From contig JBDRIL010000033.1 in NCBI GenBank assembly GCA_043815885.1, positions 1 through 15,655 of the forward strand: a DNA stretch of 15,655 bases, read 5' to 3'. Shown here piece after piece: positions 1-14,962 of the stretch. The notes below the pieces were generated by a model that was not told the origin of the DNA, did no database searches, and worked only from the letters and a program-made list of their open reading frames with translations. Each line of letters begins with the position of its first letter. Within the stretch, counting starts at the first letter, position 1. Position numbers and translations under genes: made by a program. The DNA is from an archaeon. Its GTDB lineage: Archaea; Iainarchaeota; Iainarchaeia; Iainarchaeales; 1-14-0-10-31-34.

Positions 1-243
1 GCAATCGATAAAGAAGGAGGAAGATATTTAGCAGAACAAGACGTATTACACAATAAAGGAGAAGTAGGCCCAGACGGATACGGGGCATACGTTGACCCAA
101 TCTGGTGGATGGAAGTAGGCGGAGCAAGATACGGAGGAAAAGGAGGAGAATGTGGCGGACTCGCAATCGATAAAGAAGGAGGAAGATATTTAGCAGAACA
201 AGACGTATTACACAATAAAGGAGAAGTAGGCCCAGACGGATAC
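1..243 (+). repeat. Exact 81-bp direct repeat (1-81 = 163-243), period 162 bp / 54 aa, in frame
   Basis: GCAATCGATAAAGAAGGAGG...CCCAGACGGATAC occurs at 1-81 and 163-243 and encodes AIDKEGGRYLAEQDVLHNKGEVGPDGY twice. Confidence 0.95.
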
Positions 244-3200
244 AGTTCATGTGATTTATTGACAAAACACCTAAGTGATTGTAATAAACTCCGCGAACAA
301 GAATACCTCCAATATTTCGGAGAAAAAGAAAACAAATTAGAAGGAATCATACTTTTATTTAAAAAAGCAATCGAAAAAATTTGGTTCTTAGACTTAATTG
401 ATTATGTGGTTTTCAAAGAAAAACAAAGTATAGAAGAAAATACTGTTGATAAAATAAAAACTATATTCTTTGGCGGGTTATTTCCTTCAACCGATGGCCC
501 GTATGTTTCTCATATCTTTATTCCTTGGTATGATAGATGCCATAAGCTAGATGGCTATGAAGATTTACAGCGAAACCCATTTGAAGAAACACGCGTAGAG
601 TTAGACATCGTTAGCAACAGGCAGAATTTGTTATTAAATGCATATGATTTGAGTGGAGACAGATACTATTATGCAGAGCAGTCATGGATGCATATATGGG
701 GGCAGGGACACGAAAGGCATAATCTGGATTGGGATATTACCTGCCCAAGAGGATATGAAATTGTTCCAGAAACAGTAAAAGGAGAAGAGTATGGAAGAGA
801 TGACTGCGAATACCTTGTACCAGATATTTATGAGAATTCAGTTCATTTCAATGGAAAATGTACTGGAAAGTATTGGTGTGACTTTGGAATAGACATTAAA
901 GGACAGGCAATGTGCAAGCTGGAGGAATGGGATGGAACAGGAAGGGTTCCAATTAAATTCGAGATTACTGAAAATAAGATGAAGACACAACTTAATGCAG
1001 GACTGCCTGTTTACACTACCTTCAATATTTACGCAAATAAAAGAATAGAGGAACTGAGTTCAGGAGGAACAACACTGCCTGTTGGAGACATTAGAGTTGA
1101 ATTCTCAATTCCAAAAGAACTTGCATTGCCTGATGTGGATTTAAATATATTTGACTGTACTGGAGCAGGATTCAAGGATGGAAGAACAGGAGAAGGAGCA
1201 CTGCCAAAGATTAATTTAGCACAAGGAAAGGGATGGTTGTGGGAGGACGTTCCAGTAAATGCCTGCGACCAGGACAACCCAGAACACGTATTCTGTGATG
1301 CAACTCAATTCAGCACAGAGTTAATGCAGAGAATACAGGTCTTGGATGAGTTTTTGAATGAAAATGGTTATGTCTTTGAATGCCCGGAAAATGAATTAGA
1401 GGAAACGCTGAGTGAAGGCAGGTATTATTCCAATACGACTGCAACTGAAGGATTAGAGGAAGGAGTGGATAGTGGAGAGATTGGAATCGATGATGTGATA
1501 ATCAGTACAGGAATACTTGAGGATGGAAGCAAGAATACGCATGTAATAGTTAGAGTTCAGAATAGAACTAATGAGGAAAAGAGTGCAGAGATTGATGTAA
1601 CAATTACAAATGAAGATGAAGGATATAGTGAAACATGCAAGAAAGACTTTGCAGCAGGAATTCCTGCAGCTGGAGGAGAAAGTGAAGGGGCAGGGATTGA
1701 TGCTGAAACATGTGACTTCTATGACTTAGAGCCAAACGATACTGCATATGAAGCAGAAATCACTATTACTTCAACTGGAATAGTTAACCCAGAAGAAGTT
1801 ACTGTAAACTTTGTTGTAATTGAAACAGAGCCAACTGTATTTGAAGGATGCCATATTCCGGCAGGAACTGCGGAAGTCGGAGGAGTATTTATACCAGAAT
1901 ATTGGCTGGATAAGGATGGTCCATACGGAGATTTGGTGAATCAGGACAGCTTTGAAACAACTAATGAAGTAAGAGATTTGGATGACTTATATAATTTGAC
2001 TCACTTCAATGCATTCTTAATGCAGGATTCATATACTACTGACTTCCAGAAAGACTTCCATGACGCAATGACTAAGACTAATTTCTTTGATGCACCGGAA
2101 TACTACAGGAATACAACTGATGGATTAGGAAAGTATTTCTCTGATCCAAACAGGTTTGCATTCTCAGTGGAGGACTCGGATTCAACAAGGCTTCCGGCAC
2201 CAGGGCTTTACAGAGTGGATATAGATGTATGGTTTAGCGAGGACTGGAAGTTCTTTGATTCAGGCGGAGATCCATTAGGAGTAATAATTATAAGGCTGAA
2301 CAGGCTTGCTTCAAGGGACGAGCAAATGTCTGCCTTTTACTATCTGCCGTTTGATGGAAGAGTTGGATTGGAAGGAAGCACTTATAACAGGCAAGGTTAT
2401 GGAGTGGCTTATTCCAATTATGCAATGAATTTACTGCAGGGAGAAGAAATCAGTGAAGTAGTGAAGACTTATTCTTCTGCTGAATCAAATCCATTCATGG
2501 AAATGGATGTAGAATTCGAGCAGGACTTCAGGAATTTGAATTCAGAGTTAGCTTCAAGAGGAGATGTATTGAAGATAAGTGGGGCAGGAACAGGGCAAAA
2601 GAAAATGGTGTTCTCTCCTTCAATTGGAACTCCGGTAATGCTGAAAGTAGAGAATCCGGAAGGAAATCCAATAAAGGCATTTTATAGGTTAATGGAAGAG
2701 GGAAGGATTGGGGAAGCAGGAAGCACTTTAAGCTACTGGGATGGAGCAGACAAGTTAGAGTGCAAGGACTTTGACGGAACATTCCTGTGGAATAAGTATT
2801 CAGTGACTGATACAAAGGCTTCTTCTCTGGACTTGAGAGAGGGAGTGAATATAAAGGATTACAAGCTGGAATGGGATAATGTGAATTATCAAGGAAATGT
2901 ATGGTATAAGAGTATGTTCTATACTCCGACAGAGGAATTATATGCATTGCATACTGTTTCTCCTACAAGCAAAATGACTTTCTATTCCCCTTCAGTTGTA
3001 TCTGGAGGAAGCAGTGTTACACTGAATGGAGTGAAGGGGTCGAGTGGAACAGAATACTTCAATGAAATGAATTCATTGAACAAGATATTTGATTTAGTGA
3101 GGGAAGGAAAGATGTGTATTGCAGACAATGGAAGGACAGTGGATATATTCTGGAATGAAAAGGCATTGTATGAAGATGACTCCTCTGGAAAGAGTGTAAG

Positions 3201-3258
3201 CGATATAGAGGAAGGAATCAATTCAGGGCAGGCTCAATGGAGCTGCATTACCGGCTGA
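1..3258 (+). CDS. Very large acidic, Cys-rich putative secreted/cell-surface protein, 5'-truncated (frame is open from base 1)
   Basis: Frame 1 has no stop from base 1 to TGA at 3256-3258; ATG109 is probably internal. The product is D/E/G/T-rich with many Cys and beta-sandwich-like segments (e.g. THVIVRVQNRTNEEKSAEIDVTITNE). No C-terminal TM helix. Function is inferred from composition only. Confidence 0.8.
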   Translation, partial: AIDKEGGRYLAEQDVLHNKGEVGPDGYGAYVDPIWWMEVGGARYGGKGGECGGLAIDKEGGRYLAEQDVLHNKGEVGPDGYSSCDLLTKHLSDCNKLREQEYLQYFGEKENKLEGIILLFKKAIEKIWFLDLIDYVVFKEKQSIEENTVDKIKTIFFGGLFPSTDGPYVSHIFIPWYDRCHKLDGYEDLQRNPFEETRVELDIVSNRQNLLLNAYDLSGDRYYYAEQSWMHIWGQGHERHNLDWDITCPRGYEIVPETVKGEEYGRDDCEYLVPDIYENSVHFNGKCTGKYWCDFGIDIKGQAMCKLEEWDGTGRVPIKFEITENKMKTQLNAGLPVYTTFNIYANKRIEELSSGGTTLPVGDIRVEFSIPKELALPDVDLNIFDCTGAGFKDGRTGEGALPKINLAQGKGWLWEDVPVNACDQDNPEHVFCDATQFSTELMQRIQVLDEFLNENGYVFECPENELEETLSEGRYYSNTTATEGLEEGVDSGEIGIDDVIISTGILEDGSKNTHVIVRVQNRTNEEKSAEIDVTITNEDEGYSETCKKDFAAGIPAAGGESEGAGIDAETCDFYDLEPNDTAYEAEITITSTGIVNPEEVTVNFVVIETEPTVFEGCHIPAGTAEVGGVFIPEYWLDKDGPYGDLVNQDSFETTNEVRDLDDLYNLTHFNAFLMQDSYTTDFQKDFHDAMTKTNFFDAPEYYRNTTDGLGKYFSDPNRFAFSVEDSDSTRLPAPGLYRVDIDVWFSEDWKFFDSGGDPLGVIIIRLNRLASRDEQMSAFYYLPFDGRVGLEGSTYNRQGYGVAYSNYAMNLLQGEEISEVVKTYSSAESNPFMEMDVEFEQDFRNLNSELASRGDVLKISGAGTGQKKMVFSPSIGTPVMLKVENPEGNPIKAFYRLMEEGRIGEAGSTLSYWDGADKLECKDFDGTFLWNKYSVTDTKASSLDLREGVNIKDYKLEWDNVNYQGNVWYKSMFYTPTEELYALHTVSPTSKMTFYSPSVVSGGSSVTLNGVKGSSGTEYFNEMNSLNKIFDLVREGKMCIADNGRTVDIFWNEKALYEDDSSGKSVSDIEEGINSGQAQWSCITG

Positions 3259-3259
3259 G

Positions 3260-3276
3260 TAATGCAAAAACTATTT
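3260..3276 (+). repeat. Left copy of 17-bp direct repeat TAATGCAAAAACTATTT flanking the TA module
   Basis: Identical to 4167-4183; extends to 19/20 nt (GAGTAATG... vs GAATAATG...). Confidence 0.9.
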
Positions 3277-3294
3277 CTAAGGGCAATAGATAGC

Positions 3295-3351
3295 TTTAAA
3301 TAACATTCACTACGATATTGTATACGAAAGCAACGTTTGTATACAAGGTGA
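3295..3351 (+). promoter_or_regulatory. TA operon promoter: TATA box, palindromic operator and RBS
   Basis: TTTAAATA at 3295-3302; TTGTATACGA (3318-3327) and perfect palindrome TTGTATACAA (3337-3346); GGTGA at 3347-3351 just before ATG3356. Confidence 0.65.
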
Positions 3352-3355
3352 TTTT

Positions 3356-3646
3356 ATGAGGGTTATTACCACGAGAATGGATGAAAAAGATGTAAAAGAT
3401 TTAATTGAAATAGAAAAAGAAGAGAGGGCTGAAAGAGCGGAAGTAATTAGAAGATTGTTAGGAAAAGCCATTAAGGAATGGAAAACCCAGAAAGCATTGG
3501 AAAAACTCAGAGAACACAAGATTTCTCTGAGAAAGGCTTCTGAGTTTGCTGGAATTTCTTACATTGAAATGCTTGATTTGTCCTCTAAGGCTGGAATCGA
3601 CACAGGTTATTCCTTAAAAGAACTCGAAAGAGACCTCAAAAGATAG
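3356..3646 (+). CDS. Antitoxin: N-terminal RHH/CopG-like domain + UPF0175-like HTH domain
   Basis: MRVITTRM...RAEVIRRLLGKAI is RHH-like; ALEKLREHKISLRKASEFAGISYIEM matches the UPF0175 pattern; lies directly upstream of a PIN gene. Confidence 0.85.
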   Translation: MRVITTRMDEKDVKDLIEIEKEERAERAEVIRRLLGKAIKEWKTQKALEKLREHKISLRKASEFAGISYIEMLDLSSKAGIDTGYSLKELERDLKR

Positions 3647-3659
3647 GAAGGCGCACTTA

Positions 3660-4160
3660 ATGGTTTTTGTTGATTCCTCTGTACTGATTCATTTGAGTAG
3701 AATAGGAAAATTGAACCTACTAAAAGAATACTTCAAAGAAATAAAGATAACTGAAGATGTTTTTGAAGAGACAGTAGTTAAATCAGGGGAAGTTGCTGGA
3801 AAGATCGAAATAAAGAGAGGCTGTGATAAATGGATAAAAATAGAAAAGCCAAAAAATGCGGGAAGGGTAAGAGAGCTAAGCAGAAACAATTTAATCAGCA
3901 AAGCAGATGCATCACTAATTGAATCCGCGAGAGAAAGAAAAGAAATACTGCTTACCAACGATTATTTACTGATTAAGGTTGCAAGAAGCTTTGGAGTAGA
4001 ATGCTGGTGGCTGACGACCTTTATTATTAAATGCAGGGAAAAAAATGTTTTGACTAAGTCAGAAACAAAGAAGATAGTTATTGATTTAATTGAATCAGGA
4101 ATGCGGCTTAATATAGAAGTTTATACAAGGATTGAAAAAATAATTGATGAAATGAAATAA
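3660..4160 (+). CDS. vapC: PIN-domain (VapC-like, DUF3368-type) toxin ribonuclease
   Basis: VFVDSSVLIHL, VFEETV, ISKADASLI and LLTNDYLLIKVARSFGV carry the PIN acidic residues; the C-terminal extension is typical of DUF3368. Confidence 0.85.
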   Translation: MVFVDSSVLIHLSRIGKLNLLKEYFKEIKITEDVFEETVVKSGEVAGKIEIKRGCDKWIKIEKPKNAGRVRELSRNNLISKADASLIESARERKEILLTNDYLLIKVARSFGVECWWLTTFIIKCREKNVLTKSETKKIVIDLIESGMRLNIEVYTRIEKIIDEMK

Positions 4161-4186: not shown

Positions 4187-4260
4187 GAAGGAAAGCTTAT
4201 TTTATAAACAGGATGAATTACACGCTGTTACTTGTATTGTTCTCTATAACTGATGAGATA

Positions 4261-4599
4261 ATGAAATGGGAATTCTTTAGTGACATGAATTTTGTCTTGA
4301 AGATATTTGTATTGTTAACAATAATCAGTTTTATTAAAATGAATATTGGGACAGGGGCATTGGGGATAATTTTGATGGCAGGGATTTCTTATTTTGTTTT
4401 ATTTGATTTATGGAAACTGTTCGGAGGAATATACTTAATGTATATGTTATTGTTTTTGGGCTTGAGCCATATTCTTGTGGATTTCTTTTTTGTCAGCGGG
4501 GGCCATGAGCCAACACCAGAAGAAGCAATGCGGGGGAAAGGGGGAATGCACGGACAGGGAATGGCGCATACTGCATTAAGAGGAATGAGGAGAAGATGA
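4261..4599 (+). CDS. Small multi-pass membrane protein (paralog 1) with Gly/Met/His/Arg-rich tail; start uncertain (ATG 4213, 4261 or 4285)
   Basis: About 3 hydrophobic helices; core IISFIKMNIGTGALGIILMAGISYFVLF is shared with the next two ORFs. Confidence 0.8.
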   Translation: MKWEFFSDMNFVLKIFVLLTIISFIKMNIGTGALGIILMAGISYFVLFDLWKLFGGIYLMYMLLFLGLSHILVDFFFVSGGHEPTPEEAMRGKGGMHGQGMAHTALRGMRRR

Positions 4600-4600
4600 A

Positions 4601-4921
4601 ATGAATGAAAAAGGAATTCACTTAATATTCATTATTCTTGGATTGTTCTTGATTCTGGCAATACTTCCAACCATTACAATGTGGTTATTCCCTCAGGCAA
4701 GAATAATCCTTCAAATAATCCTTATCTTCCTGCTTTACTCAATGGTTAGGTCATATCTTGGTTCAGGGATACTAACTATAATAATTTCGGGAATACTAAT
4801 CTATATACTGGTATTCAAGTACCCGGAATTTACTGCTGGAGCATACATACTGTATGTGGCTGCAACACTAATGGTTTCATCAGTAATAATCTGGGGAGCA
4901 GCAATGTTTTTGAGGAAATAA
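4601..4921 (+). CDS. Small multi-pass membrane protein (paralog 2)
   Basis: 106 aa, about 4 hydrophobic segments; core LYSMVRSYLGSGILTIIISGILIYILVFKYPEF; 1 nt after the previous stop. Confidence 0.85.
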   Translation: MNEKGIHLIFIILGLFLILAILPTITMWLFPQARIILQIILIFLLYSMVRSYLGSGILTIIISGILIYILVFKYPEFTAGAYILYVAATLMVSSVIIWGAAMFLRK

Positions 4922-4923
4922 AT

Positions 4924-5172
4924 ATGGGATTTATTTTAGGGGCATTCGAGGCATCAATCTGGACAGCAATCTCCTTATTTGCACTTGTATGGATTTATTC
5001 ATGGGCAAAAGGCAATTTAGGTTCAGCGAAACTAGCCATAATTTTTGCAGCAATAATAGTATACCTTACATTCTATCAGTTCCCTGAATTGGTTTGGTTG
5101 TTTGTGGCTTTATTCCTTTTTGCCACCTTTGGAAAGGAGTTATTTGACAGAGTATATATTTTCAAGCCGTGA
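4924..5172 (+). CDS. Small multi-pass membrane protein (paralog 3)
   Basis: 82 aa; core IYSWAKGNLGSAKLAIIFAAIIVYLTFYQFPEL; 2 nt after the previous stop. Confidence 0.85.
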   Translation: MGFILGAFEASIWTAISLFALVWIYSWAKGNLGSAKLAIIFAAIIVYLTFYQFPELVWLFVALFLFATFGKELFDRVYIFKP

Positions 5173-5178
5173 TAATGA

Positions 5179-5499
5179 ATGGATACATTTACCTTTCTCC
5201 TGGCAGTAATATTCCTGATGATGGCAGTGCAATGGCAGCAGAATTGGCTAGTCATAGCAATAGTAGTAATAATGATTCTCTATATGCGTTCAATAAAGGC
5301 AACAGTAGGGCTGATAATTGCGTTGGGTGTACTATATATATTAAGAGATAGCATAGCTGAATATGCGTTATATATTATCATTGGGATGGTTATATTGGCA
5401 CTGATTATTGGCTTTAAGGAGAAACAAGCTGAACCAGAATACTATTCCCCTGACATGCTTGGAGGATTAATGGGCGGAGGCATGGGAGGAGGAATGTAA
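5179..5499 (+). CDS. Small membrane protein with short hydrophobic helices and a GGM-rich C-terminal tail
   Basis: Hydrophobic over about the first 78 aa, then EPEYYSPDMLGGLMGGGMGGGM; operon spacing of 6 nt. Confidence 0.85.
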   Translation: MDTFTFLLAVIFLMMAVQWQQNWLVIAIVVIMILYMRSIKATVGLIIALGVLYILRDSIAEYALYIIIGMVILALIIGFKEKQAEPEYYSPDMLGGLMGGGMGGGM

Positions 5500-5889
5500 T
5501 TGAATAAGCTTGTTTCAGTACTCCTGCTCATAATAATTGCATTTATTGGATATGAAATGCAACTGGTTTGGGTAAGCATTATAGCAGTACTGCTTTTAAT
5601 ATTCATTGTCCTGGGTTCTGTTTTAAGGGGAACAGCAAGGGCTGGATATGGCATAGCAAGAGAAGGAACAAGGGACATGATGAATGACATGGAGGAAGCA
5701 GAGCCAAAGCCTCCAGAAGGAGAGTACCTGGCAGAATTAACAGAGGAAGCAGCAAAGAAGTTCCCTGAATTAAAGGAAAGCCCAGAAAACAGATGGACGA
5801 TAGACCATAAAACGCAAAGAATACACAAAGGCTCAAAGGGACTGCTTGAAGGAATACAGAAATTATTCAGGAAAAAGTTTGTGGATTAG
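5500..5889 (+). CDS. Membrane-anchored protein: N-terminal hydrophobic hairpin + charged/amphipathic helical region (TTG start)
   Basis: Starts immediately after the previous TAA; two hydrophobic segments, then a charged region ending in amphipathic GLLEGIQKLFRKK. Confidence 0.8.
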   Translation: MNKLVSVLLLIIIAFIGYEMQLVWVSIIAVLLLIFIVLGSVLRGTARAGYGIAREGTRDMMNDMEEAEPKPPEGEYLAELTEEAAKKFPELKESPENRWTIDHKTQRIHKGSKGLLEGIQKLFRKKFVD

Positions 5890-6383
5890 GATTTCTTGTT
5901 TATAAGGCTTCTATTGGTTTCCAATACTTTCTTCATTATTGAATGAGTGGCATTAGTTGATGCCTTTATTTCAGATAATTCTTTTTTCATTTCAGTGAGT
6001 TCCTTTTCCAATTCATTCATTTTCTTTATTATTTTTTCTGCATAAAGGCTTTGGTCCTTGAGTCTGCCTATTGCAGCCTTAACTGAATCCATCTTGGAAT
6101 GGAATTCATCCAGTTTTGCGCTGTGTTCGTCAAGCTTTAAGTGAGTGGAAGTTTCTTTCAGTTCATCTGTCTGGTTTGTTTCTGCGGAAGCTTCCTCTGG
6201 CTCAGGGGTTTCTTCTTCTGGTTCTTCCTCTTCTTCTGGATTTGATTCTGCTTTTGCAATCAATTCATTTATTTCTTCTTCCTTTAAACCCAGATCAATC
6301 AAAGCAGACTTTATTATGGAATCTTCTATTCCTGAGGCCTTCATTTTCTTAATGGTTTTAAGAACCACTTCTTCGTTCACCAT
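5886..6383 (-). CDS. Soluble protein: N-terminal small helical domain, acidic linker, C-terminal coiled coil
   Basis: 165 aa; TIKKMKASGIEDSIIKSALIDLGLKEEEINELI helical motif, EPEEE linker, heptad-rich C-terminus; stop overlaps the convergent gene. Confidence 0.8.
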   Translation of the reverse strand: MVNEEVVLKTIKKMKASGIEDSIIKSALIDLGLKEEEINELIAKAESNPEEEEEPEEETPEPEEASAETNQTDELKETSTHLKLDEHSAKLDEFHSKMDSVKAAIGRLKDQSLYAEKIIKKMNELEKELTEMKKELSEIKASTNATHSIMKKVLETNRSLINKKS

Positions 6384-6543
6384 AAAAAATCATTCAACAA
6401 TCAAGTGCTTTCGAATAAATTACGCGCTTTAAATTAATAAATGTATTCGTTTAATTCAATTCATTTTTTGAGACAAAAGTTATTAATAAGATTTAGCATA
6501 TTATATTAGACAATTAATTAATTTGTTTAAAGGTAGAGTGAAA

Positions 6544-8058
6544 ATGGATTTCAAGTTAAGGGAAGGTCCCTGGAACAAGTTATTTCAGGGAAACTATCAG
6601 GGATTTGAGGTAGAGATTCATTCAAATCCTGAAAGCGTTCTGATTGTAACAGTGCTTGAAAGAAAGAAGGAAAAAATAGAGGGAGCAGTCATAGAGTTAT
6701 TCAAGGTATTTGCAGTTGAAGGAGAGCTGGAAGACTTTGTGGATACCTTTCCAAGAGAGGCAATGGTTTTAATAAAACACGAACCAAAGAGCAGCCTCAA
6801 GTATTTCTTGGTTAGCAGTACCCCGAGCTATGCAAAGTACAAGGAAGAAGAGTTTTGCAATGAAACAGAGAAATTACTGAAGAAATTGAAGGAAAGCGCA
6901 AGAACAATAAAGGATGTAAGCAGGGCATATGATTTGAGCCTGACTGAATTGCATGAAGCAGGAGAAAAATTCAGGGCAGCATTCTTTTCCCAGCCATTAA
7001 TGGCTCCACTGATTACTCCAACAGCAAGAGAGGAAACAGGTTATGAGCCAATAGATTTAAGCGAAAGAAAGAGGATAGGAAAGGGAGAAGTTATTCTGGG
7101 GGTTACAAGAGGCAATGTAGTGGTAAAAGAGCCACTGGAATTGCTTTGCAGGACAACCATCTTTGGTTCAACTACATTGGACAGAAAACACGCAATACAT
7201 ATAATTGCTGAAGGCGGACTAATAAGCAATGTAGCTGTAGTATTGTTTGACTGGGATGAATCATTTAATGGACTGAATACGCCTTCAAATGATTTGGCTT
7301 CACTGCAGAAGTACAAGGTGAACTTTGAGCCAATAGGTTTTCCTATAAGAGACTTTAAAGCAATGGACTTAAAGGTTGACTTGAATCTGATTAGTGTTAG
7401 CGGAACAATGGAATTATTTGGAGTGAGAGGAGAAGAAGAAGCAAAATTCATTACCAGTTTAATTAAGGAAGGAAAAGTGGATTCAATTGAAGAGTTAGCG
7501 AAAAGAGCACGTAAATCCCAGTTACTGGATGAATCAAAGGCAGGAGTTAAAAACAGAACAATAAGAATCCTGAGATTAATAGATTTAAGGCACCCAAAAC
7601 TGTTTGGAGGAAAAAACGAAATAAATGAAATCTCAAAGAACTGGGCGAAAGCGATTGGCAGGGCAGGAATCATTCATTTAGAGGGAATAGAAAGAAGAGC
7701 AGCAACACTCTTAATCCATAACCTATTGAAAGGAATCTTTCTGCACTATGATGCAATGAGGAAAACCAAAGGAGTGAATGCACTGATTTTACTGCCTGAA
7801 ATAAAAATTATTCTTTCGGCAGAAAATCCAAGCTTAATGGAAAAAGAAATAATGGAGTTATTAAAGAAATTCAAGGAAGTAGGAGTCTGCTTTGCTCTGA
7901 GCAGTGACCGTCCAGGGGACCTGCTTAGAGAGGTAATAACCCTGAGTGAAACAGAGATATTCATTCTCTCAAGAGCAGATGTAGGCGTGAGAATGTCCCG
8001 CTCAAAACAATACAGGATAATGATGCGGCCTGGATTGAGCCAGTGCACGGAAAAATAG
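6544..8058 (+). CDS. HerA/VirB4/FtsK-superfamily (DUF87-like) P-loop-fold protein with degenerate catalytic motifs; start probably ATG6544
   Basis: Motif order VILGVT...RTTIFGSTTLDRKH...VAVVLFDWDESFNGL...LILLPEIK...KKFKEVGVCFALSSDRPGDL...VITLSETEIFI mirrors the HerA-family pattern (Walker A, hhhhD, Walker B DEAH, RK-G-hhhh-sQrP). Confidence 0.75.
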   Translation: MDFKLREGPWNKLFQGNYQGFEVEIHSNPESVLIVTVLERKKEKIEGAVIELFKVFAVEGELEDFVDTFPREAMVLIKHEPKSSLKYFLVSSTPSYAKYKEEEFCNETEKLLKKLKESARTIKDVSRAYDLSLTELHEAGEKFRAAFFSQPLMAPLITPTAREETGYEPIDLSERKRIGKGEVILGVTRGNVVVKEPLELLCRTTIFGSTTLDRKHAIHIIAEGGLISNVAVVLFDWDESFNGLNTPSNDLASLQKYKVNFEPIGFPIRDFKAMDLKVDLNLISVSGTMELFGVRGEEEAKFITSLIKEGKVDSIEELAKRARKSQLLDESKAGVKNRTIRILRLIDLRHPKLFGGKNEINEISKNWAKAIGRAGIIHLEGIERRAATLLIHNLLKGIFLHYDAMRKTKGVNALILLPEIKIILSAENPSLMEKEIMELLKKFKEVGVCFALSSDRPGDLLREVITLSETEIFILSRADVGVRMSRSKQYRIMMRPGLSQCTEK

Positions 8059-8060
8059 GG

Positions 8061-8552
8061 TTATTTTTTCTTCCTTTTTGGCTTTACTGTTTTTTTGTCC
8101 TGCATTAATTCCTTTGCCTGTTCAAGGGTAACGAATTCAAGGGGATTGATTGCATCAATGACATACTTTAATTCTTTAAGTTCTTCAGCTTTAGCAAAGG
8201 ATTCCTTCATTTTCTCCAAAGAAGTGTTTATGTCATTAATCATTGCACTGTTCTGGTTTATTTTTTCCTCAAGGGCATAGAGTGAATCCTTTAATTCCTG
8301 GACAGAGGGAAACTCTGTTCCCTCAGCAACTGAAACCCCTCCAGTATAAGCCCTTGATTCCAGGACCTTTAATTTCTTGTTCAGGATTATGAGGTTTCTT
8401 CCAAGGATTTTTTCATTCCTTACAACGTAATTCATTTTCTGGGAGAGCAACAAGACAGAGGAATTCAATGCACGAATATCTCTAATCATGTCCTGAATAG
8501 AGTAAGCCATTCCCTTTGTAGTAGTCTGTTTTGAATGTCTTTCATGGGGCAT
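8061..8552 (-). CDS. Coiled-coil protein with C-terminal LKYVIDAINPLEFVT motif and basic tail
   Basis: 163 aa with heptad periodicity; AGGTGA RBS upstream on the minus strand; convergent with the ATPase-like gene (2-nt gap). Confidence 0.8.
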   Translation of the reverse strand: MPHERHSKQTTTKGMAYSIQDMIRDIRALNSSVLLLSQKMNYVVRNEKILGRNLIILNKKLKVLESRAYTGGVSVAEGTEFPSVQELKDSLYALEEKINQNSAMINDINTSLEKMKESFAKAEELKELKYVIDAINPLEFVTLEQAKELMQDKKTVKPKRKKK

Positions 8553-8640: not shown

Positions 8641-11073
8641 TTGAATAAAGCAAAAGGAATACTGCTTGATGCTGATTCTGTTACCGGAAAAGAAAATGAG
8701 AGCATTATAAGGCTGTATGTTAAGGGAGAAAAAGGCATAGAGATATTCGAGGAAAGGAGCTTCAAGCCTTACTTTTACGTCATAGTTGAAGATGTAAGAA
8801 AAGCGAAGAAAGAATTAATGGAAAGAGAGTTTGAGGGAAAGGAAGAAAAAATAAGGATATTGAATGCAGAGGAAGTAAAGAAAAAGAATGCAGAAAATGT
8901 ATTGAAGTTAAGCTTTAACAGCACGAATGAATTAAGTGAAGTGAGAGAGCAGGTAAAGGAAGTGGAAGGAGTAAAAGAGAGAAGAGAATACGATATTATT
9001 TTTGTAAAGAGATACCTGATTGACAAGGCATTAGAGCCAATGAATTACGTTGAGATTTCTTACAGAAAAGAAGGAAAAAAGAAGGTAGTGGAAAAAATCC
9101 AGAAGGGAAAGAAGGAAGCAGGAGAGGAATTCAAAACAGAAGCAATTGACTTGGAGACGTTTTCCCTTGAAAGGTTTTCTGATCCAAGAAAAGATGCAAT
9201 CCTGATGATTTCAATCGCCTCTCCAAAAGAATCGCTTGTGGTTACAACGAAAAAGGAATTAAAGGGAAGAAAAGGAGTAAAGATAGTAGGAAATGAGAAG
9301 GAAATGATTGAGGAATTAAAGGAGAACATAAAGGAAGAGGGAATAGAAATACTTGTCACTTACAATGGAGACACATTTGATTTGCCTTACCTGAAAGAAA
9401 GAAGCAGGATAATGAAAACAAGGTTTGATATCGGGATAGACGGAAGCGAGCCACAGATAAGAAGGAAAGGATTGAGCAATGCAACAAGAATCAAGGGAAT
9501 ACAGCACTTTGATGCCTATCAATTAATCAGGATTCTGTCAAGATTCGGGATAATTGATTTAGTGAAATATGATTTGGAGTCAGTGGTAGAGGCATTGTAC
9601 GGAGAAAAAAAGGAAAAAATTAAGGCAGAAGAAATAACCAAGATATGGGAGAGCGGAAAAGGATTGGAGAAGTTGGTTGAATACAATCGAGAGGATTCAG
9701 TCTTTACCCTGAAGATTGCAATGGATTATTTGCCTCTATTTATTGAATTAAGCAAGCTGGTTAAACAGACACTGTTTGAAGTGAACAGGATTGGAGCAAG
9801 CGGATTAGTTGAATCCCTGCTTATAGACAAGGGATTTGAAGAAGACACGCTTGTGCCAAATAAACCAAATGAAACAGAGGTAAAGAATAGAATGATGAAG
9901 ACCTTCAAGGGAGGTTATGTTAAGGAGCCTACGCCTGGACTGCATGAAGAGATTGCAGTGCTTGATTTCAGGAGCCTTCATCCATCCATAATGATCTCGC
10001 ATAATGTAAGCCCAGAGACATTGAATTGCGAGTGCTGCAGCAAGAGCAAAAAAAATATTGCTCCAACAAAGGATTATTTTTGCTCAAAGAAGTCAGGGTT
10101 TCTTCCGTCAGTGCAAAAGGAACTGCTTGAAAGAAGGAAAGAAATAAAGAAAGAATCAAAGAAGCTGGAGAGAAAGAGTGAAAAATATAAATTGCTTGAT
10201 GCAAGGCAGCATGCATTGAAAATAATACTTAATTCCTTTTACGGGTACTTAGGCTATCCAAGAAGCAGATGGTATTCAATTGAAAGCGCCAAGGCAGTTA
10301 CTGCTTGGAGCAGGCACTACATAAGGGAAACCATCAGAAAATCAGAAGAAGATGGCTTTAAAGCAATCTATTCTGATACTGATTCATGCTTTATAGTTAT
10401 CCCGAAAGAAAAAACTGCAAAGAATGTAAATGAATTCATAAAGAAGGTTAATGCTGAACTGCCTGGAGAAATGGAACTGGAATTAGAGGGAATCTATAAG
10501 AGAGGCATATTTGTAACAAAAAAAATTGGAGGAGCTGCAGCAAAAAAGAGGTATGCATTGATTGACGGGGAAGGAAACCTGAAGATAGTCGGATTTGAGT
10601 ATGTAAGAAGAGACTGGGCTGTAGTGGCAAAGGAGACACAGAAAAGGGTAATTGAATTAGTACTGAAAGAAGGAAAACCAGAGAAGGCAATAGAGGAAGT
10701 AAAAGAAAAGATAAAGAGGTTAAGGGAAGGAAAAACGCCAAAAAAAGAACTGGTTATTTATACGCAGATAAAAAAACCCTTAAGCCAGTATGAATCCATC
10801 GGTCCACATGTATCTGCAGCAAGAAAAGCAATAAAAAAAGGAAAGAATTTAGGAATAGGTTCAATTATCGGATACATTGTAACCAAGAGCGGCAAAAGCA
10901 TTTCAGATAAAGCAGAATTAGAGGAATTCGTAAAGGAAGGAAACTATGATGCGGATTACTATATCGAGCACCAGCTTGTACCGGCAGTAATAAAAATCAT
11001 CCAGGAATTAGGTTATGGAAAGGAAGATTTGATTCATGGAGGAAAGCAGGCAACACTGAATGCATTTAAATAG
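8641..11073 (+). CDS. polB: Family B DNA polymerase (archaeal PolB3-like) with 3'-5' exonuclease domain
   Basis: ExoI AIDLET, ExoII TYNGDTFDLPYL, ExoIII YNRED; motif A DFRSLHPSI, motif B QHALKIILNSFYGY, motif C YSDTDS, KKRYA, GFEYVRRDW. Confidence 0.97.
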   Translation: MNKAKGILLDADSVTGKENESIIRLYVKGEKGIEIFEERSFKPYFYVIVEDVRKAKKELMEREFEGKEEKIRILNAEEVKKKNAENVLKLSFNSTNELSEVREQVKEVEGVKERREYDIIFVKRYLIDKALEPMNYVEISYRKEGKKKVVEKIQKGKKEAGEEFKTEAIDLETFSLERFSDPRKDAILMISIASPKESLVVTTKKELKGRKGVKIVGNEKEMIEELKENIKEEGIEILVTYNGDTFDLPYLKERSRIMKTRFDIGIDGSEPQIRRKGLSNATRIKGIQHFDAYQLIRILSRFGIIDLVKYDLESVVEALYGEKKEKIKAEEITKIWESGKGLEKLVEYNREDSVFTLKIAMDYLPLFIELSKLVKQTLFEVNRIGASGLVESLLIDKGFEEDTLVPNKPNETEVKNRMMKTFKGGYVKEPTPGLHEEIAVLDFRSLHPSIMISHNVSPETLNCECCSKSKKNIAPTKDYFCSKKSGFLPSVQKELLERRKEIKKESKKLERKSEKYKLLDARQHALKIILNSFYGYLGYPRSRWYSIESAKAVTAWSRHYIRETIRKSEEDGFKAIYSDTDSCFIVIPKEKTAKNVNEFIKKVNAELPGEMELELEGIYKRGIFVTKKIGGAAAKKRYALIDGEGNLKIVGFEYVRRDWAVVAKETQKRVIELVLKEGKPEKAIEEVKEKIKRLREGKTPKKELVIYTQIKKPLSQYESIGPHVSAARKAIKKGKNLGIGSIIGYIVTKSGKSISDKAELEEFVKEGNYDADYYIEHQLVPAVIKIIQELGYGKEDLIHGGKQATLNAFK

Positions 11074-11096: not shown

Positions 11097-11996
11097 GTGA
11101 TTGAAATGAAGGAAAAGGAATTCAAGTCATATGTTAAGGCAGGAAAAGTGCTTAAAAGAATTCAGTCAAATGCAAAGACTTCAATCAAAGAAGGAATGAA
11201 GTTACTGGATATAGCGGAAAAAATCGAGAAGGAAATAATTGAGTTGGATGCAAAACCCGCTTTCCCCGCAAACCTTTCTCTGAATAATAATGCAGCGCAT
11301 TATACTCCTGCAAGTGATGATGAAACAGTAATAGGAGAAAAGGATGTGCTGAAAGTGGATATAGGGGTTCATGTGGATGGATTTATTGCTGATGCATCCA
11401 TTACAATTGATTTCTCCAATGAATGGGGGAAAATGGCGGAAGCAACAGAAAAGGCATTAGAGAATGCATTAAGCATGCTTAAAGTGGGAAGAAAATTAGG
11501 CGAAATCGGGACAGAGATAGAAAAAACAATTCGTTCTTATGGCTTTAATCCAGTGCAGAATTTAAGCGGCCATGGTTTAGCAGAATACCAAACCCATGCC
11601 TCTCCTTCCATTCCAAATATATCTAAAAGAGACGCGAGAACAATAGAAGAAGGAAAGGCATATGCAGTAGAGCCATTTGCAACCAATGGAAGCGGTTTTG
11701 TAAAAGAAGCGCCACAAACAGAGATATTTGAATTAAATGAAGTAAAACCAGTAAGGAACCTGGAAGCAAGAAAGATTTTAAGCAAAGTGGAAGAAGAATA
11801 CAATACCCTTCCATTTGCACAGAGATGGTTATTGAAGAGCTTTTCTCCAATCAATACAAAGATTGCCTTAAGGGAATTAATCCAAAGAGAATGTTTGAAG
11901 AGGTATCCATTGCTGAGAGAACAAAAGGAAATGATTGTAACACAGGCAGAAAATTCCTTTGTAGTGCACAACGAGGAAATAGTTGTATTAGTCTAA
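11097..11996 (+). CDS. map: Type II methionine aminopeptidase
   Basis: AFPANLSLNNNAAHYTP, KVDIGVHVDGFIAD, NLSGHGL, AVEPFAT, the type II helical insert (LPFAQRWL...YPLLRE) and the terminal E ligand. Confidence 0.96.
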   Translation: MIEMKEKEFKSYVKAGKVLKRIQSNAKTSIKEGMKLLDIAEKIEKEIIELDAKPAFPANLSLNNNAAHYTPASDDETVIGEKDVLKVDIGVHVDGFIADASITIDFSNEWGKMAEATEKALENALSMLKVGRKLGEIGTEIEKTIRSYGFNPVQNLSGHGLAEYQTHASPSIPNISKRDARTIEEGKAYAVEPFATNGSGFVKEAPQTEIFELNEVKPVRNLEARKILSKVEEEYNTLPFAQRWLLKSFSPINTKIALRELIQRECLKRYPLLREQKEMIVTQAENSFVVHNEEIVVLV

Positions 11997-14077: not shown

Positions 14078-14962
14078 TCAACTGTAAAGTTCTTGGACTC
14101 CTATAATGTCTCCAGCTTCAAGGGTTCTCTTGTTTGTTTCGCCTTCGTCTGCATAACCGTACATTGTTGCCTCTGAGCACTTTACATTGTAGAGGTCATC
14201 CATTCCAACACTGTGTCCGAGTTCGTGTGTAGCAATATTCTCGAAATCCATCTTGTTTGCATCTCCTGATGCAGACCAATCAAAGTCAACCTGGTCATAG
14301 ATTTGATCCCATTCAACTAATTCTCTCTGTGAAGGCTTTCCTCCAAATCTGCCCCACACTACAGTTATAGCGATAGCACCGTAATCATCCACGTCCCCAA
14401 AATAGACTTCGTTCTTGTTGTCTGGTTCTATTAGGTCTGCTTCAAGTTCTTCATTTGTACTTGAACCATTTCCAATAATGTCAACCCCTGCAGCTGTTTC
14501 CCACTTGTTGATGTCCAAAGCCAAATTAGTGAGTATAAATGAGGCATTTAATCCCTGAGTGTTTGATGTATTAACCACATAAGGTTCAATGGTTTTCCAT
14601 TTAGCGCCTCTTGCAAGAAACCCATAGCAATTGCTTCCCTCTTCTCCATTGTCTCCCCCGCAATCAGCAGGACAGCTCTTTGAATTCTCTGAAGGTTCAC
14701 AGAATCCATTACCACATTCAGTTCCAGGTTTGCCGAAACCTTTCTTGTACTGGATTATTGCATAGCCTTCAACTGTCTTTCCTTTGTGTACGGCTTTTCC
14801 AAGGTAAAATACTCCTGGAGAGACTTCCACTGCATTTGAAGGCAGGGAAACCTTTGCCTTTTCTTTAATCTCTTTTGGCACGTAGTCTGGTTTTACTGCC
14901 ACTGCAGAACTAACTGAAAAAACCAGCATTACAAATAAACCCAAAATTAGAAATTTCTTCAT
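14078..14962 (-). CDS. Secreted metzincin (matrixin/M10-like) metalloprotease with a Cys-rich CGNGxCE motif
   Basis: Signal peptide MKKFLILGLFVMLVFSVSSAVA; zinc motif HELGHSVGMDD; Met-turn ATMYG; CGNGFCEPSENSKSCPADC; GGTGA RBS upstream on the minus strand. Confidence 0.9.
   Translation of the reverse strand: MKKFLILGLFVMLVFSVSSAVAVKPDYVPKEIKEKAKVSLPSNAVEVSPGVFYLGKAVHKGKTVEGYAIIQYKKGFGKPGTECGNGFCEPSENSKSCPADCGGDNGEEGSNCYGFLARGAKWKTIEPYVVNTSNTQGLNASFILTNLALDINKWETAAGVDIIGNGSSTNEELEADLIEPDNKNEVYFGDVDDYGAIAITVVWGRFGGKPSQRELVEWDQIYDQVDFDWSASGDANKMDFENIATHELGHSVGMDDLYNVKCSEATMYGYADEGETNKRTLEAGDIIGVQELYS

Follow-up and report, generated by a model that had tools for sequence, protein, structure and literature searches.

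An unnamed family of probable FtsK-HerA pseudo-ATPases conserved across the Iainarchaeota (Diapherotrites)

The archaeal contig JBDRIL010000033.1 of assembly GCA_043815885.1, from a member of the Iainarchaeota, was analysed over its whole length of 15,655 nucleotides (the window), and it carries a gene for a 504-residue protein, here called the target, which represents a real pseudo-ATPase family that has no name and whose function can only be inferred. The window is contig C33 of a 1.16 Mb genome in 62 contigs that is 91.7% complete. The best explanation as a whole, to which a probability of about 0.55 is given, is that of a stand-alone pseudo-ATPase of the FtsK-HerA superfamily which acts as a structural or adaptor subunit and has the proteins encoded next to it as partners. 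That the protein is a pseudo-ATPase is by itself highly probable, and its functional tie to a divergently encoded protein of 165 amino acids and to a row of membrane proteins is a tentative proposal, somewhat short of an even chance.

Loss of the catalytic motifs was judged at homologous positions, using a profile of 147 family sequences against an intact DUF87 paralog encoded on contig C62 of the same genome, whose motifs read GKRGGGKS, IDEAH, GRQPG and TQRP. By hhalign the two align with a probability of 96% (E 4.5e-9), and G208 of the target falls on the first glycine of GKRGGGKS, R214 on the lysine and K215 on the serine, with P418 and E419 lying on the aspartate and glutamate of IDEAH. 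The family HMMER profile against the HerA structure 4d2i (E 2.4e-4) sets KLKxxG on GRKFG and S[AS]DRP on SQRP, and shifts Walker B by one so that E419 meets the first glutamate and I420 the second; in either register the sequence LLPEI holds at most one acidic residue. Compared with HerA then, the target is without the GxxGxGK[ST] of Walker A, the Walker B pair, the arginine finger and the sensor glutamine, and on such a sequence a protein that neither binds nor hydrolyses nucleotide would be expected. In a full-length AlphaFold2 (AF2) model the degenerate Walker A segment lies at the canonical place of a P-loop, after strand 203-208 and before helix 211-227, and just two residues part this strand from this helix. 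An alternative register, in which a global hhalign alignment of low confidence put LGVTRGN on the P-loop of the paralog, was rejected because the deeper 147-sequence profile disagrees with it, because residues 182-187 form a strand in the model with the P-loop place at 208-211, and because the range aligned by VIA opens with model residue 182 on chain residue 120. A first-pass annotation of the window had described an intact open reading frame (ORF) for a HerA/VirB4-fold protein with four degenerate motifs and an extra N-terminal domain. On re-reading the sequence the frame translates to 504 amino acids plus a stop, the four quoted strings are exact at the coordinates of Table 1, and all four are degenerate at homologous positions by the C62 profile alignment and the 4d2i alignment.

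The fold on which these motifs would sit seems clear from the AF2 model, which was built on 21 homologs with a mean predicted local distance difference test score (pLDDT) of 81.9 and is laid out as a folded N-terminal domain (residues 1-150), a low-confidence stretch (154-179) and then a large alpha/beta domain. Foldseek returned 152 matches in the PDB at E <= 0.001, with HerA of Sulfolobus solfataricus (4d2i_A) at E 1.7e-13, and 27 of the 27 rows listed are HerA or HerA-containing complexes. By VIA, residues 176-504 match HerA 4d2i_B with Z 25.1 over 278 aligned residues at a root mean square deviation (rmsd) of 2.7, followed by DndH-C (Z 23.3), VirB4 4ag5 (22.4), TrwB (17.7) and FtsK (15.6), and so the claimed likeness to both HerA and VirB4 is borne out when the fold comparison is run. 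As modelled, the C-terminal domain belongs at the level of fold to the FtsK-HerA superfamily, in which the corresponding Pfam family is DUF87 (PF01935). Sequence comparison recovers this relationship unevenly. The family profile reaches 4d2i as given above, and hhalign of family alignment A1 against the HerA of the same genome is weak (probability 4%, E 0.01). Weak DUF87 matches occur in 10 of the 21 close relatives, some of which pass the gathering cut-off of 23.2 (P0011 at 31.2 bits, P0005 at 26.7 bits), and since these matches open at profile position 39-41 the relatives match DUF87 from just past the P-loop; P-loop-only matches elsewhere in the genome span positions 26-58.

The target protein itself matched no Pfam family at E <= 0.01 and not DUF87 at E <= 1, and its sole NCBIfam match is to CedD over residues 199-242 at E 0.0037, far sub-threshold with 16 bits against a cut-off of 600. 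None of the PADLOC families and nothing in PHROGs was matched, the neighbouring genes giving sub-threshold noise alone, and phmmer with the single protein against the PDB gave nothing significant (best E 0.1). With no covering model in Pfam, NCBIfam, PHROGs or PADLOC, the protein is therefore currently annotated as hypothetical only, and the source names of the relatives seen are "hypothetical protein" throughout. A description of the family was not found in the full-text literature, a coverage that leaves out most subscription journals and supplements, so that an arCOG-level mention could exist.

The degenerate state is not peculiar to this one sequence. A word-indexed search found 21 proteins of 34-88% identity to the target, and in an exhaustive profile search 342 representatives reached E <= 0.001, 221 of them at or below 1e-10 and 173 at or below 1e-30, with sequences taken from the best 150 of the 342. 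Of the 169 family sequences so gathered, 147 reach at least 430 amino acids and make up the full-length set. At the aligned Walker A position GxxGxGK[ST] occurs in 0 of 147, and in 165 family sequences the regular expression [AG]xxxxGK[ST] matched at 11 scattered places, none of them the Walker A position, with intact HerA and the C62 paralog both scoring as expected as positive controls; a check for orthologs with intact motifs thus found none among the 165 sequences examined. In the full-length set position 215 is lysine in 49 and leucine in 34, position 418 is proline in 82 and position 419 is glutamate in only 50, and the places of the arginine finger (444; K 27, S 22, A 15) and of the sensor (455; E 55, D 24, Q 12) are likewise variable. 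Relatives at 28-88% identity to the target have this degenerate state in common. Two long variants, P0133 (685 amino acids) and P0118 (563), gain their length from low-complexity tails rich in proline and lysine and have no added domain.

When 215 species genomes of the phylum, which record titles call Iainarchaeota or Diapherotrites, were searched with a profile, 202 genomes from 75 of 79 genera proved to have the gene. Among these are all 58 high-quality genomes (completeness of 90% or more, contamination of 5% or less), and completeness is 68-89% in the 13 that gave no match. It is almost always a single match per genome, as in the target's own genome, with one internal stop among the matches listed. 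Nei-Gojobori estimates of the ratio of nonsynonymous to synonymous substitution (dN/dS) for the ten closest pairs lie at 0.20-0.31 with dS of 0.65-0.89, and pairs that include the target, near saturation at dS 1.4-2.1, give 0.18-0.29. The target is a single-copy core gene under purifying selection: the ratio, when checked as the first-pass annotation had proposed, falls well below 1, and with intact ORFs in 202 of the 215 genomes the gene is evidently kept by selection. Catalytic residues gone, a fold kept and purifying selection together mark a probable pseudoenzyme, and all three are found here.

A distant subclade has a sequence of the FE[QP]D type at the Walker B place, and none of the 215 phylum genomes has a match to its member P0118 at E <= 1e-60, so the family extends past the phylum as sampled, and probably into the Micrarchaeota. 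All four named rows of this subclade, and P0133 as well, are labelled Candidatus Micrarchaeota or Micrarchaeia. Such labels are unreliable, because locus L010, whose record is titled Candidatus Micrarchaeota archaeon, shares its coordinates with a genome that the genome-collection grouping places in the target's own family (G013:C24:4448-5959). The motifs were lost before the phylum as a whole radiated, and probably also before the split from the Micrarchaeota-labelled lineage.

What the family has kept in place of its motifs raises the question of whether the site has been re-made. In the 147 sequences G186 and E223 are conserved at 100%, R341 at 99%, R495 at 98% and R491 at 95%, and R214, at the place of the Walker lysine, is arginine in 120 (81%). 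A site formed by R214, E223, R341, R491 and R495 might then bind a nucleotide, a phosphate-bearing ligand or nucleic acid and let the protein act as a sensor or switch. A precedent of a kind is found in type VII secretion, where the D3 domains of EssC have a degenerated Walker B and no arginine finger and yet are required in a membrane machine, and where D3 is still discussed as contributing through ATP binding (PMC9436818). Set against a re-made site are the loss of the glycine-rich loop, the two residues between strand and helix that leave little loop to hold a phosphate, and the variability of the Ser/Thr position and of both acidic Walker B positions. Moreover the intact paralogs have the R491/R495 motif (R...RP..S) close to their C-terminus too, which makes it an inherited feature and not a new one. 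On balance a re-made binding site is thought unlikely.

The first-pass annotation had also suggested a mixed hexamer with an active paralog encoded elsewhere, and a search of the genome does find three DUF87 proteins with intact motifs (on contigs C4, C62 and C29), which shows the availability of a partner and nothing beyond that. The C4 protein is a canonical HerA of 511 amino acids (ALSGAGKS, LEEAH, GRKFG, SQRP), and the C62 protein is a shorter form cut by the contig end. The third, on C29 (locus L003, minus strand, about 1-3558), exceeds 1186 amino acids and has its Walker A interrupted after the lysine by an intein: GARGSGK is followed by a cysteine and about 430 residues ending in HN and then by a serine, and splicing would restore GxxGxGKS. 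Each of the 58 high-quality genomes has one or more DUF87 matches at E <= 1e-8, mostly two to four, and the family profile lies nearest to the C62 type, with HerA behind it at a probability of 91.5% and E 8.5e-7. An inactive subunit that regulates or spaces active subunits within a mixed ring would therefore have candidate partners throughout. But partner availability is not evidence of pairing, no paralog neighbours the target in any locus examined, identity between target and paralogs is about 18-20%, and the N-terminal domain of the target appears unlike that of HerA, all of which makes a mixed ring a rather poor prospect.

The N-terminal domain is present as the first-pass annotation had proposed (residues 1-150 folded, 154-179 below pLDDT 50). 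Folded alone on 26 sequences it gave a pLDDT of 90.3 and a predicted template modelling score (pTM) of 0.84, and its G8, P9 and W10 are conserved at 89-93% in the 147 sequences. In a VIA-wide search the top rows are YbjN-family proteins and class I type III secretion chaperones with Z of 6.5-7.8 (DR_1245 7.8, STM2138 7.6, AmyR 7.6, VecA 7.3, SicP 6.9, ExsC 6.6), with 99-113 residues aligned at an rmsd of 2.8-3.8 and 4-17% identity; against TrwK/VirB4 the domain alone scores Z 5.6. Atlas structure rows are likewise YbjN-like, with template modelling (TM) scores of 0.55-0.58 (YbjN itself 0.55), and Atlas feature rows for residues 1-155 point to VirB4 N-domain clusters at 0.78-0.79, which by the tool's own account are leads only. 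No HerA N-domain is found among the top 50 VIA-wide rows, an absence from a list that does not exclude the HAS barrel fold, and with the full model the HerA rows begin between residues 175 and 183 and never upstream of 175. At the level of modelled fold the domain looks like a peptide-binding alpha/beta module of the YbjN or type III chaperone kind.

The features of the window that bear on the family are collected in Table 1. The ATG start of the target is preferred over a TTG at 6523 because a Shine-Dalgarno-like stretch, GGTAGAGTGA by a reading by eye, lies 4 nucleotides 5' of the ATG, and the AT-rich intergenic region would serve as the promoter region for both the target and the divergent 165-residue protein.

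Table 1. Features of the window, in order of position, with the evidence for each
Feature	Position	Strand	Basis
Large acidic Cys-containing protein, > 1049 aa, 5' open	1..3258	+	homologs in 10/16 and 4/10 loci; no family match
Five tightly packed small membrane-protein genes (128, 106, 82, 106, 129 aa), partly paralogous	4213..5889	+	hydropathy
165-aa protein with a small helical domain at the N-terminus, an acidic linker and a coiled coil at the C-terminus	5886..6383	-	alignment A4
AT-rich intergenic region between the divergent 165-aa gene and the target	6384..6543	.	sequence; divergent layout kept in related loci
Target gene, 504-aa probable pseudo-ATPase	6544..8058	+	ATG at 6544, stop 8056-8058; ORF and translation
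N-terminal alpha/beta domain, residues 1-150, GPW motif at 8-10	6544..6993	+	AF2 model, alignment
Linker, low-confidence and variable, residues 154-179	7003..7080	+	pLDDT < 50; gappy unconserved alignment columns
HerA/VirB4-type RecA-like domain, residues 176-504	7069..8055	+	VIA and Foldseek on the model
Degenerate Walker A place (GSTTLDRK), R214 at Lys, K215 at Ser/Thr	7165..7188	+	profile alignment
Degenerate Walker B place (LILLPE)	7783..7800	+	two alignments, register uncertain by 1 residue
Arg-finger segment KKFKEVG, K444 where HerA has the Arg of GRKFG	7864..7884	+	HMMER alignment to 4d2i
Sensor segment SSDRP (vs SQRP), D455	7900..7914	+	HMMER alignment to 4d2i
163-aa coiled-coil protein, conserved NPLEF motif, basic tail, convergent	8061..8552	-	alignment A3
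Family B DNA polymerase (PolB)	8641..11073	+	Pfam, NCBIfam
Type II methionine aminopeptidase (MetAP)	11097..11996	+	Pfam, NCBIfam

Gene order was followed in three sets of related loci, namely 16 from other species (some on short contigs), 10 from more distant phylum genomes including class-level relatives and 6 from the distant subclade. The 165-residue protein is encoded next to the target in 14/16, 9/10 and 6/6 of these, and the 163-residue protein and PolB are each present in 13/16, 8/10 and 2/6, with MetAP in 7/16 and 6/10; genes past MetAP are conserved in 0-3 of the 16, and there the synteny ends. The long subclade loci L033 and L034 keep the same order and orientations for a membrane protein, the 165-residue gene, the target, the 163-residue gene, PolB and MetAP. 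The other four loci of the subclade set (L037-L040), from a metagenome scan queried with five closer sequences, are at 28-30% identity, and in all four the 165-residue gene is adjacent and divergent. They are without PolB and the 163-residue gene, but in two of them the sequence stops at the target homolog or shortly beyond it. The 165-residue gene is the most faithful neighbour, because it is adjacent in all sets of loci including those without PolB and the 163-residue gene (L023, L024, L037-L040). Its first 45 residues resemble a three-helix UBA-like bundle when the alignment is read by eye. An Atlas search with this protein gave no usable match, and a prediction of its complex with the target, run without controls, gave no answer (score 0.00, mark 0.32) and weighs neither for nor against a pairing.

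Upstream of these lie the five small membrane proteins, four of which have 3-4 transmembrane segments by hydropathy and the fifth one. They recur in 12-13 of the 16 loci (the fifth in 5 of 16), the 82-residue protein being present in 13/16 and in 8 of the 10 more distant genomes, and a relative of the one encoded at 5179-5499 is found in 2 of the 4 metagenome loci and in 4/6 subclade loci overall. Three are mutually paralogous (4213-5172) with profiles that cross-match, and in reduced genomes a single ORF is matched by all three profiles (L024 10814-11080; L031 6101-6487), which suggests that the gene was duplicated in larger genomes or that copies were lost from smaller ones. Neither the small membrane proteins nor the coiled-coil neighbours belong to a known family as judged by Pfam, NCBIfam, PADLOC, PHROGs, PDB profiles and Atlas; profiles of the 165- and 163-residue proteins gave generic coiled-coil matches only in the PDB. 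The 163-residue family has 506 relatives with no functional annotation beyond sporadic automatic names, and the few names that bear a taxon are Diapherotrites, Micrarchaeota or archaeon.

Still further upstream, large proteins of 1000-1800 residues (window 1-3258, with homologs in L007-L032) mostly end in a conserved ...AG.NCI[GSE] with its near-terminal cysteine, and in the window copy neither a family match nor a hydrophobic anchor was seen. At the contig start (window 1-270), inside this 5'-open frame, the 27 residues AIDKEGGRYLAEQDVLHNKGEVGPDGY are found in two in-frame copies, a repeat that may explain the assembly break. Between the large protein and the membrane genes, at 3356-4160, a UPF0175 antitoxin-like gene (96 amino acids) and a weak PIN-like gene (166) look like a local toxin-antitoxin insertion, because no related locus has the pair at that place. 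Beyond the conserved block a 294-residue protein (14078-14962, minus strand) carries a hydrophobic segment at its N-terminus and, towards the C-terminus, the motif region of a matrixin-type zinc metalloprotease (Pfam Peptidase_M10, E 3.1e-8).

The company of PolB gives some grounds for thinking of an accessory to replication, segregation or division, in which the protein would act as a non-motor ring or hub together with PolB and the coiled-coil proteins. PolB lies two genes downstream in the counts just given, PolB and the 163-residue gene have a common 88-bp divergent spacer, the 163-residue protein ends in a basic tail, and in Haloferax volcanii a HerA-domain protein, not necessarily a relative of the target, is reported to localise at midcell (bioRxiv 10.64898/2026.07.16.738847). 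But PolB and the 163-residue gene leave the side of the target in L023, L024 and L037-L039 where the 165-residue gene stays, and no DNA-binding domain was detected in Pfam and NCBIfam scans, so that a role of this sort seems doubtful, about as much so as a mixed ring. Decay to a recent pseudogene, to which the loss of all catalytic motifs might point, is rejected with next to no residual probability by the ORFs in 202 of 215 genomes, the dN/dS of 0.2-0.3 and the same degenerate state at 28-88% identity. A defence system of the Sir2-HerA or DUF4297-HerA kind was rejected too, this being a core single-copy gene with no PADLOC match and no Sir2 or DUF4297 neighbour, as was a mobile-element gene, given its place as a chromosomal single-copy core gene.

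Among known systems HerA, a hexameric DNA translocase of archaea and bacteria, is the nearest in structure, 4D2I being the best structural match of residues 176-504, and the C-terminal R...RP..S motif is common to the target family and the intact paralogs. Apart from its catalytic motifs the target differs from HerA in an N-domain that matches YbjN-like folds best and not the HAS barrel, in having no Pfam or NCBIfam match to NurA, Mre11 or Rad50 among the 18 ORFs of the window, and in that a separate intact HerA is encoded in the same genome. Full-length TrwK rows cover model residues 12-504 (Z 15-18, at an rmsd of about 9), and the small membrane proteins encoded near the target recall VirB3 beside VirB4. 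In contrast to VirB4 and CedB, the target is without the catalytic motifs and is a chromosomal core gene and not on a mobile element, its neighbours have no homology to VirB2, VirB3, VirB6 or CedA detectable by Pfam and NCBIfam, and the Pfam N-domain of VirB4 (PF03135) is not matched. The D3 domain of EssC/EccC, compared here by description, is likewise an FtsK-HerA member that has lost catalytic features and been kept, but D3 is one domain beside the active D1 and D2, whereas the target is a whole stand-alone protein that is degenerate, Walker A included. The N-domain shares with YbjN and the class I type III chaperones a fold over the residues aligned but no sequence similarity, and it is fused to an ATPase-like domain with no secretion system implied. 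The VirB4 and EssC parallels are to be taken as analogies, because the features that define membership of VirB4 and HerA were looked for and mostly not found.

Overall, with its motifs lost and yet a single-copy core gene under purifying selection, the target most likely works without ATP hydrolysis as a structural or adaptor subunit, so far as sequence can tell. In such a mechanism the HerA-like domain would be the platform, possibly ring-shaped, on which assembly takes place, with a partner polypeptide held by the N-terminal domain. The likeliest partners would be the divergent 165-residue protein with its coiled coil and the small multi-pass membrane proteins encoded in a row. A tie of the target to the membrane would then resemble the way in which the central hexamer of VirB4 is held to the membrane through VirB3 (PMC12624023).

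Several points weigh against this subunit model. The Walker B registers disagree by one residue between the C62 and 4d2i alignments, and a distant relative with intact motifs may be missed when sequences come from the best 150 of 342 representatives. R214, well conserved and exactly at the position of the Walker lysine, could belong to a non-canonical nucleotide or anion site. For the N-domain the Z scores stay below 8, middling by the tool's own note, and Foldseek with the N-domain model gave no match at E <= 0.001. As to the partners, operon logic is inapplicable because the target stands on the strand opposite to both coiled-coil genes and forms its own transcription unit, and since the conserved block also holds PolB and MetAP the synteny may partly be inherited order without functional meaning. 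The analogy with VirB3 and VirB4 is one of kind and not of homology, because the membrane and coiled-coil neighbours match no known family.

A bolder extension, considered improbable, would see one unrecognised membrane apparatus in the pseudo-ATPase, the giant upstream protein, four or five of the small membrane proteins and the 165-residue protein. This would derive from a VirB4/CedB-like translocon whose motor was lost before two DPANN phyla diverged, and would now be a universal organ of these small-genome archaea, for example for cell contact, for uptake of DNA or nutrients or for division, powered in trans or not at all.

What is new here is that the FtsK-HerA superfamily has a branch of probable pseudo-ATPases which stand alone, span a whole lineage and have an apparently different domain at the N-terminus. 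Long-surviving pseudoenzymes usually mark an assembly or regulatory role that is present also in their active relatives, where catalysis masks it. The family may in this sense be seen as a natural experiment, one in which the FtsK-HerA scaffold is left to work without ATP. The target is also a lineage signature gene of a DPANN phylum whose organisms are uncultivated and have genomes of about 1 Mb, in which few genes are dispensable. Together with the five membrane proteins and the two coiled-coil proteins it makes a concrete study set, for which cultivated co-cultures of Micrarchaeota could be used provided that they have the gene.

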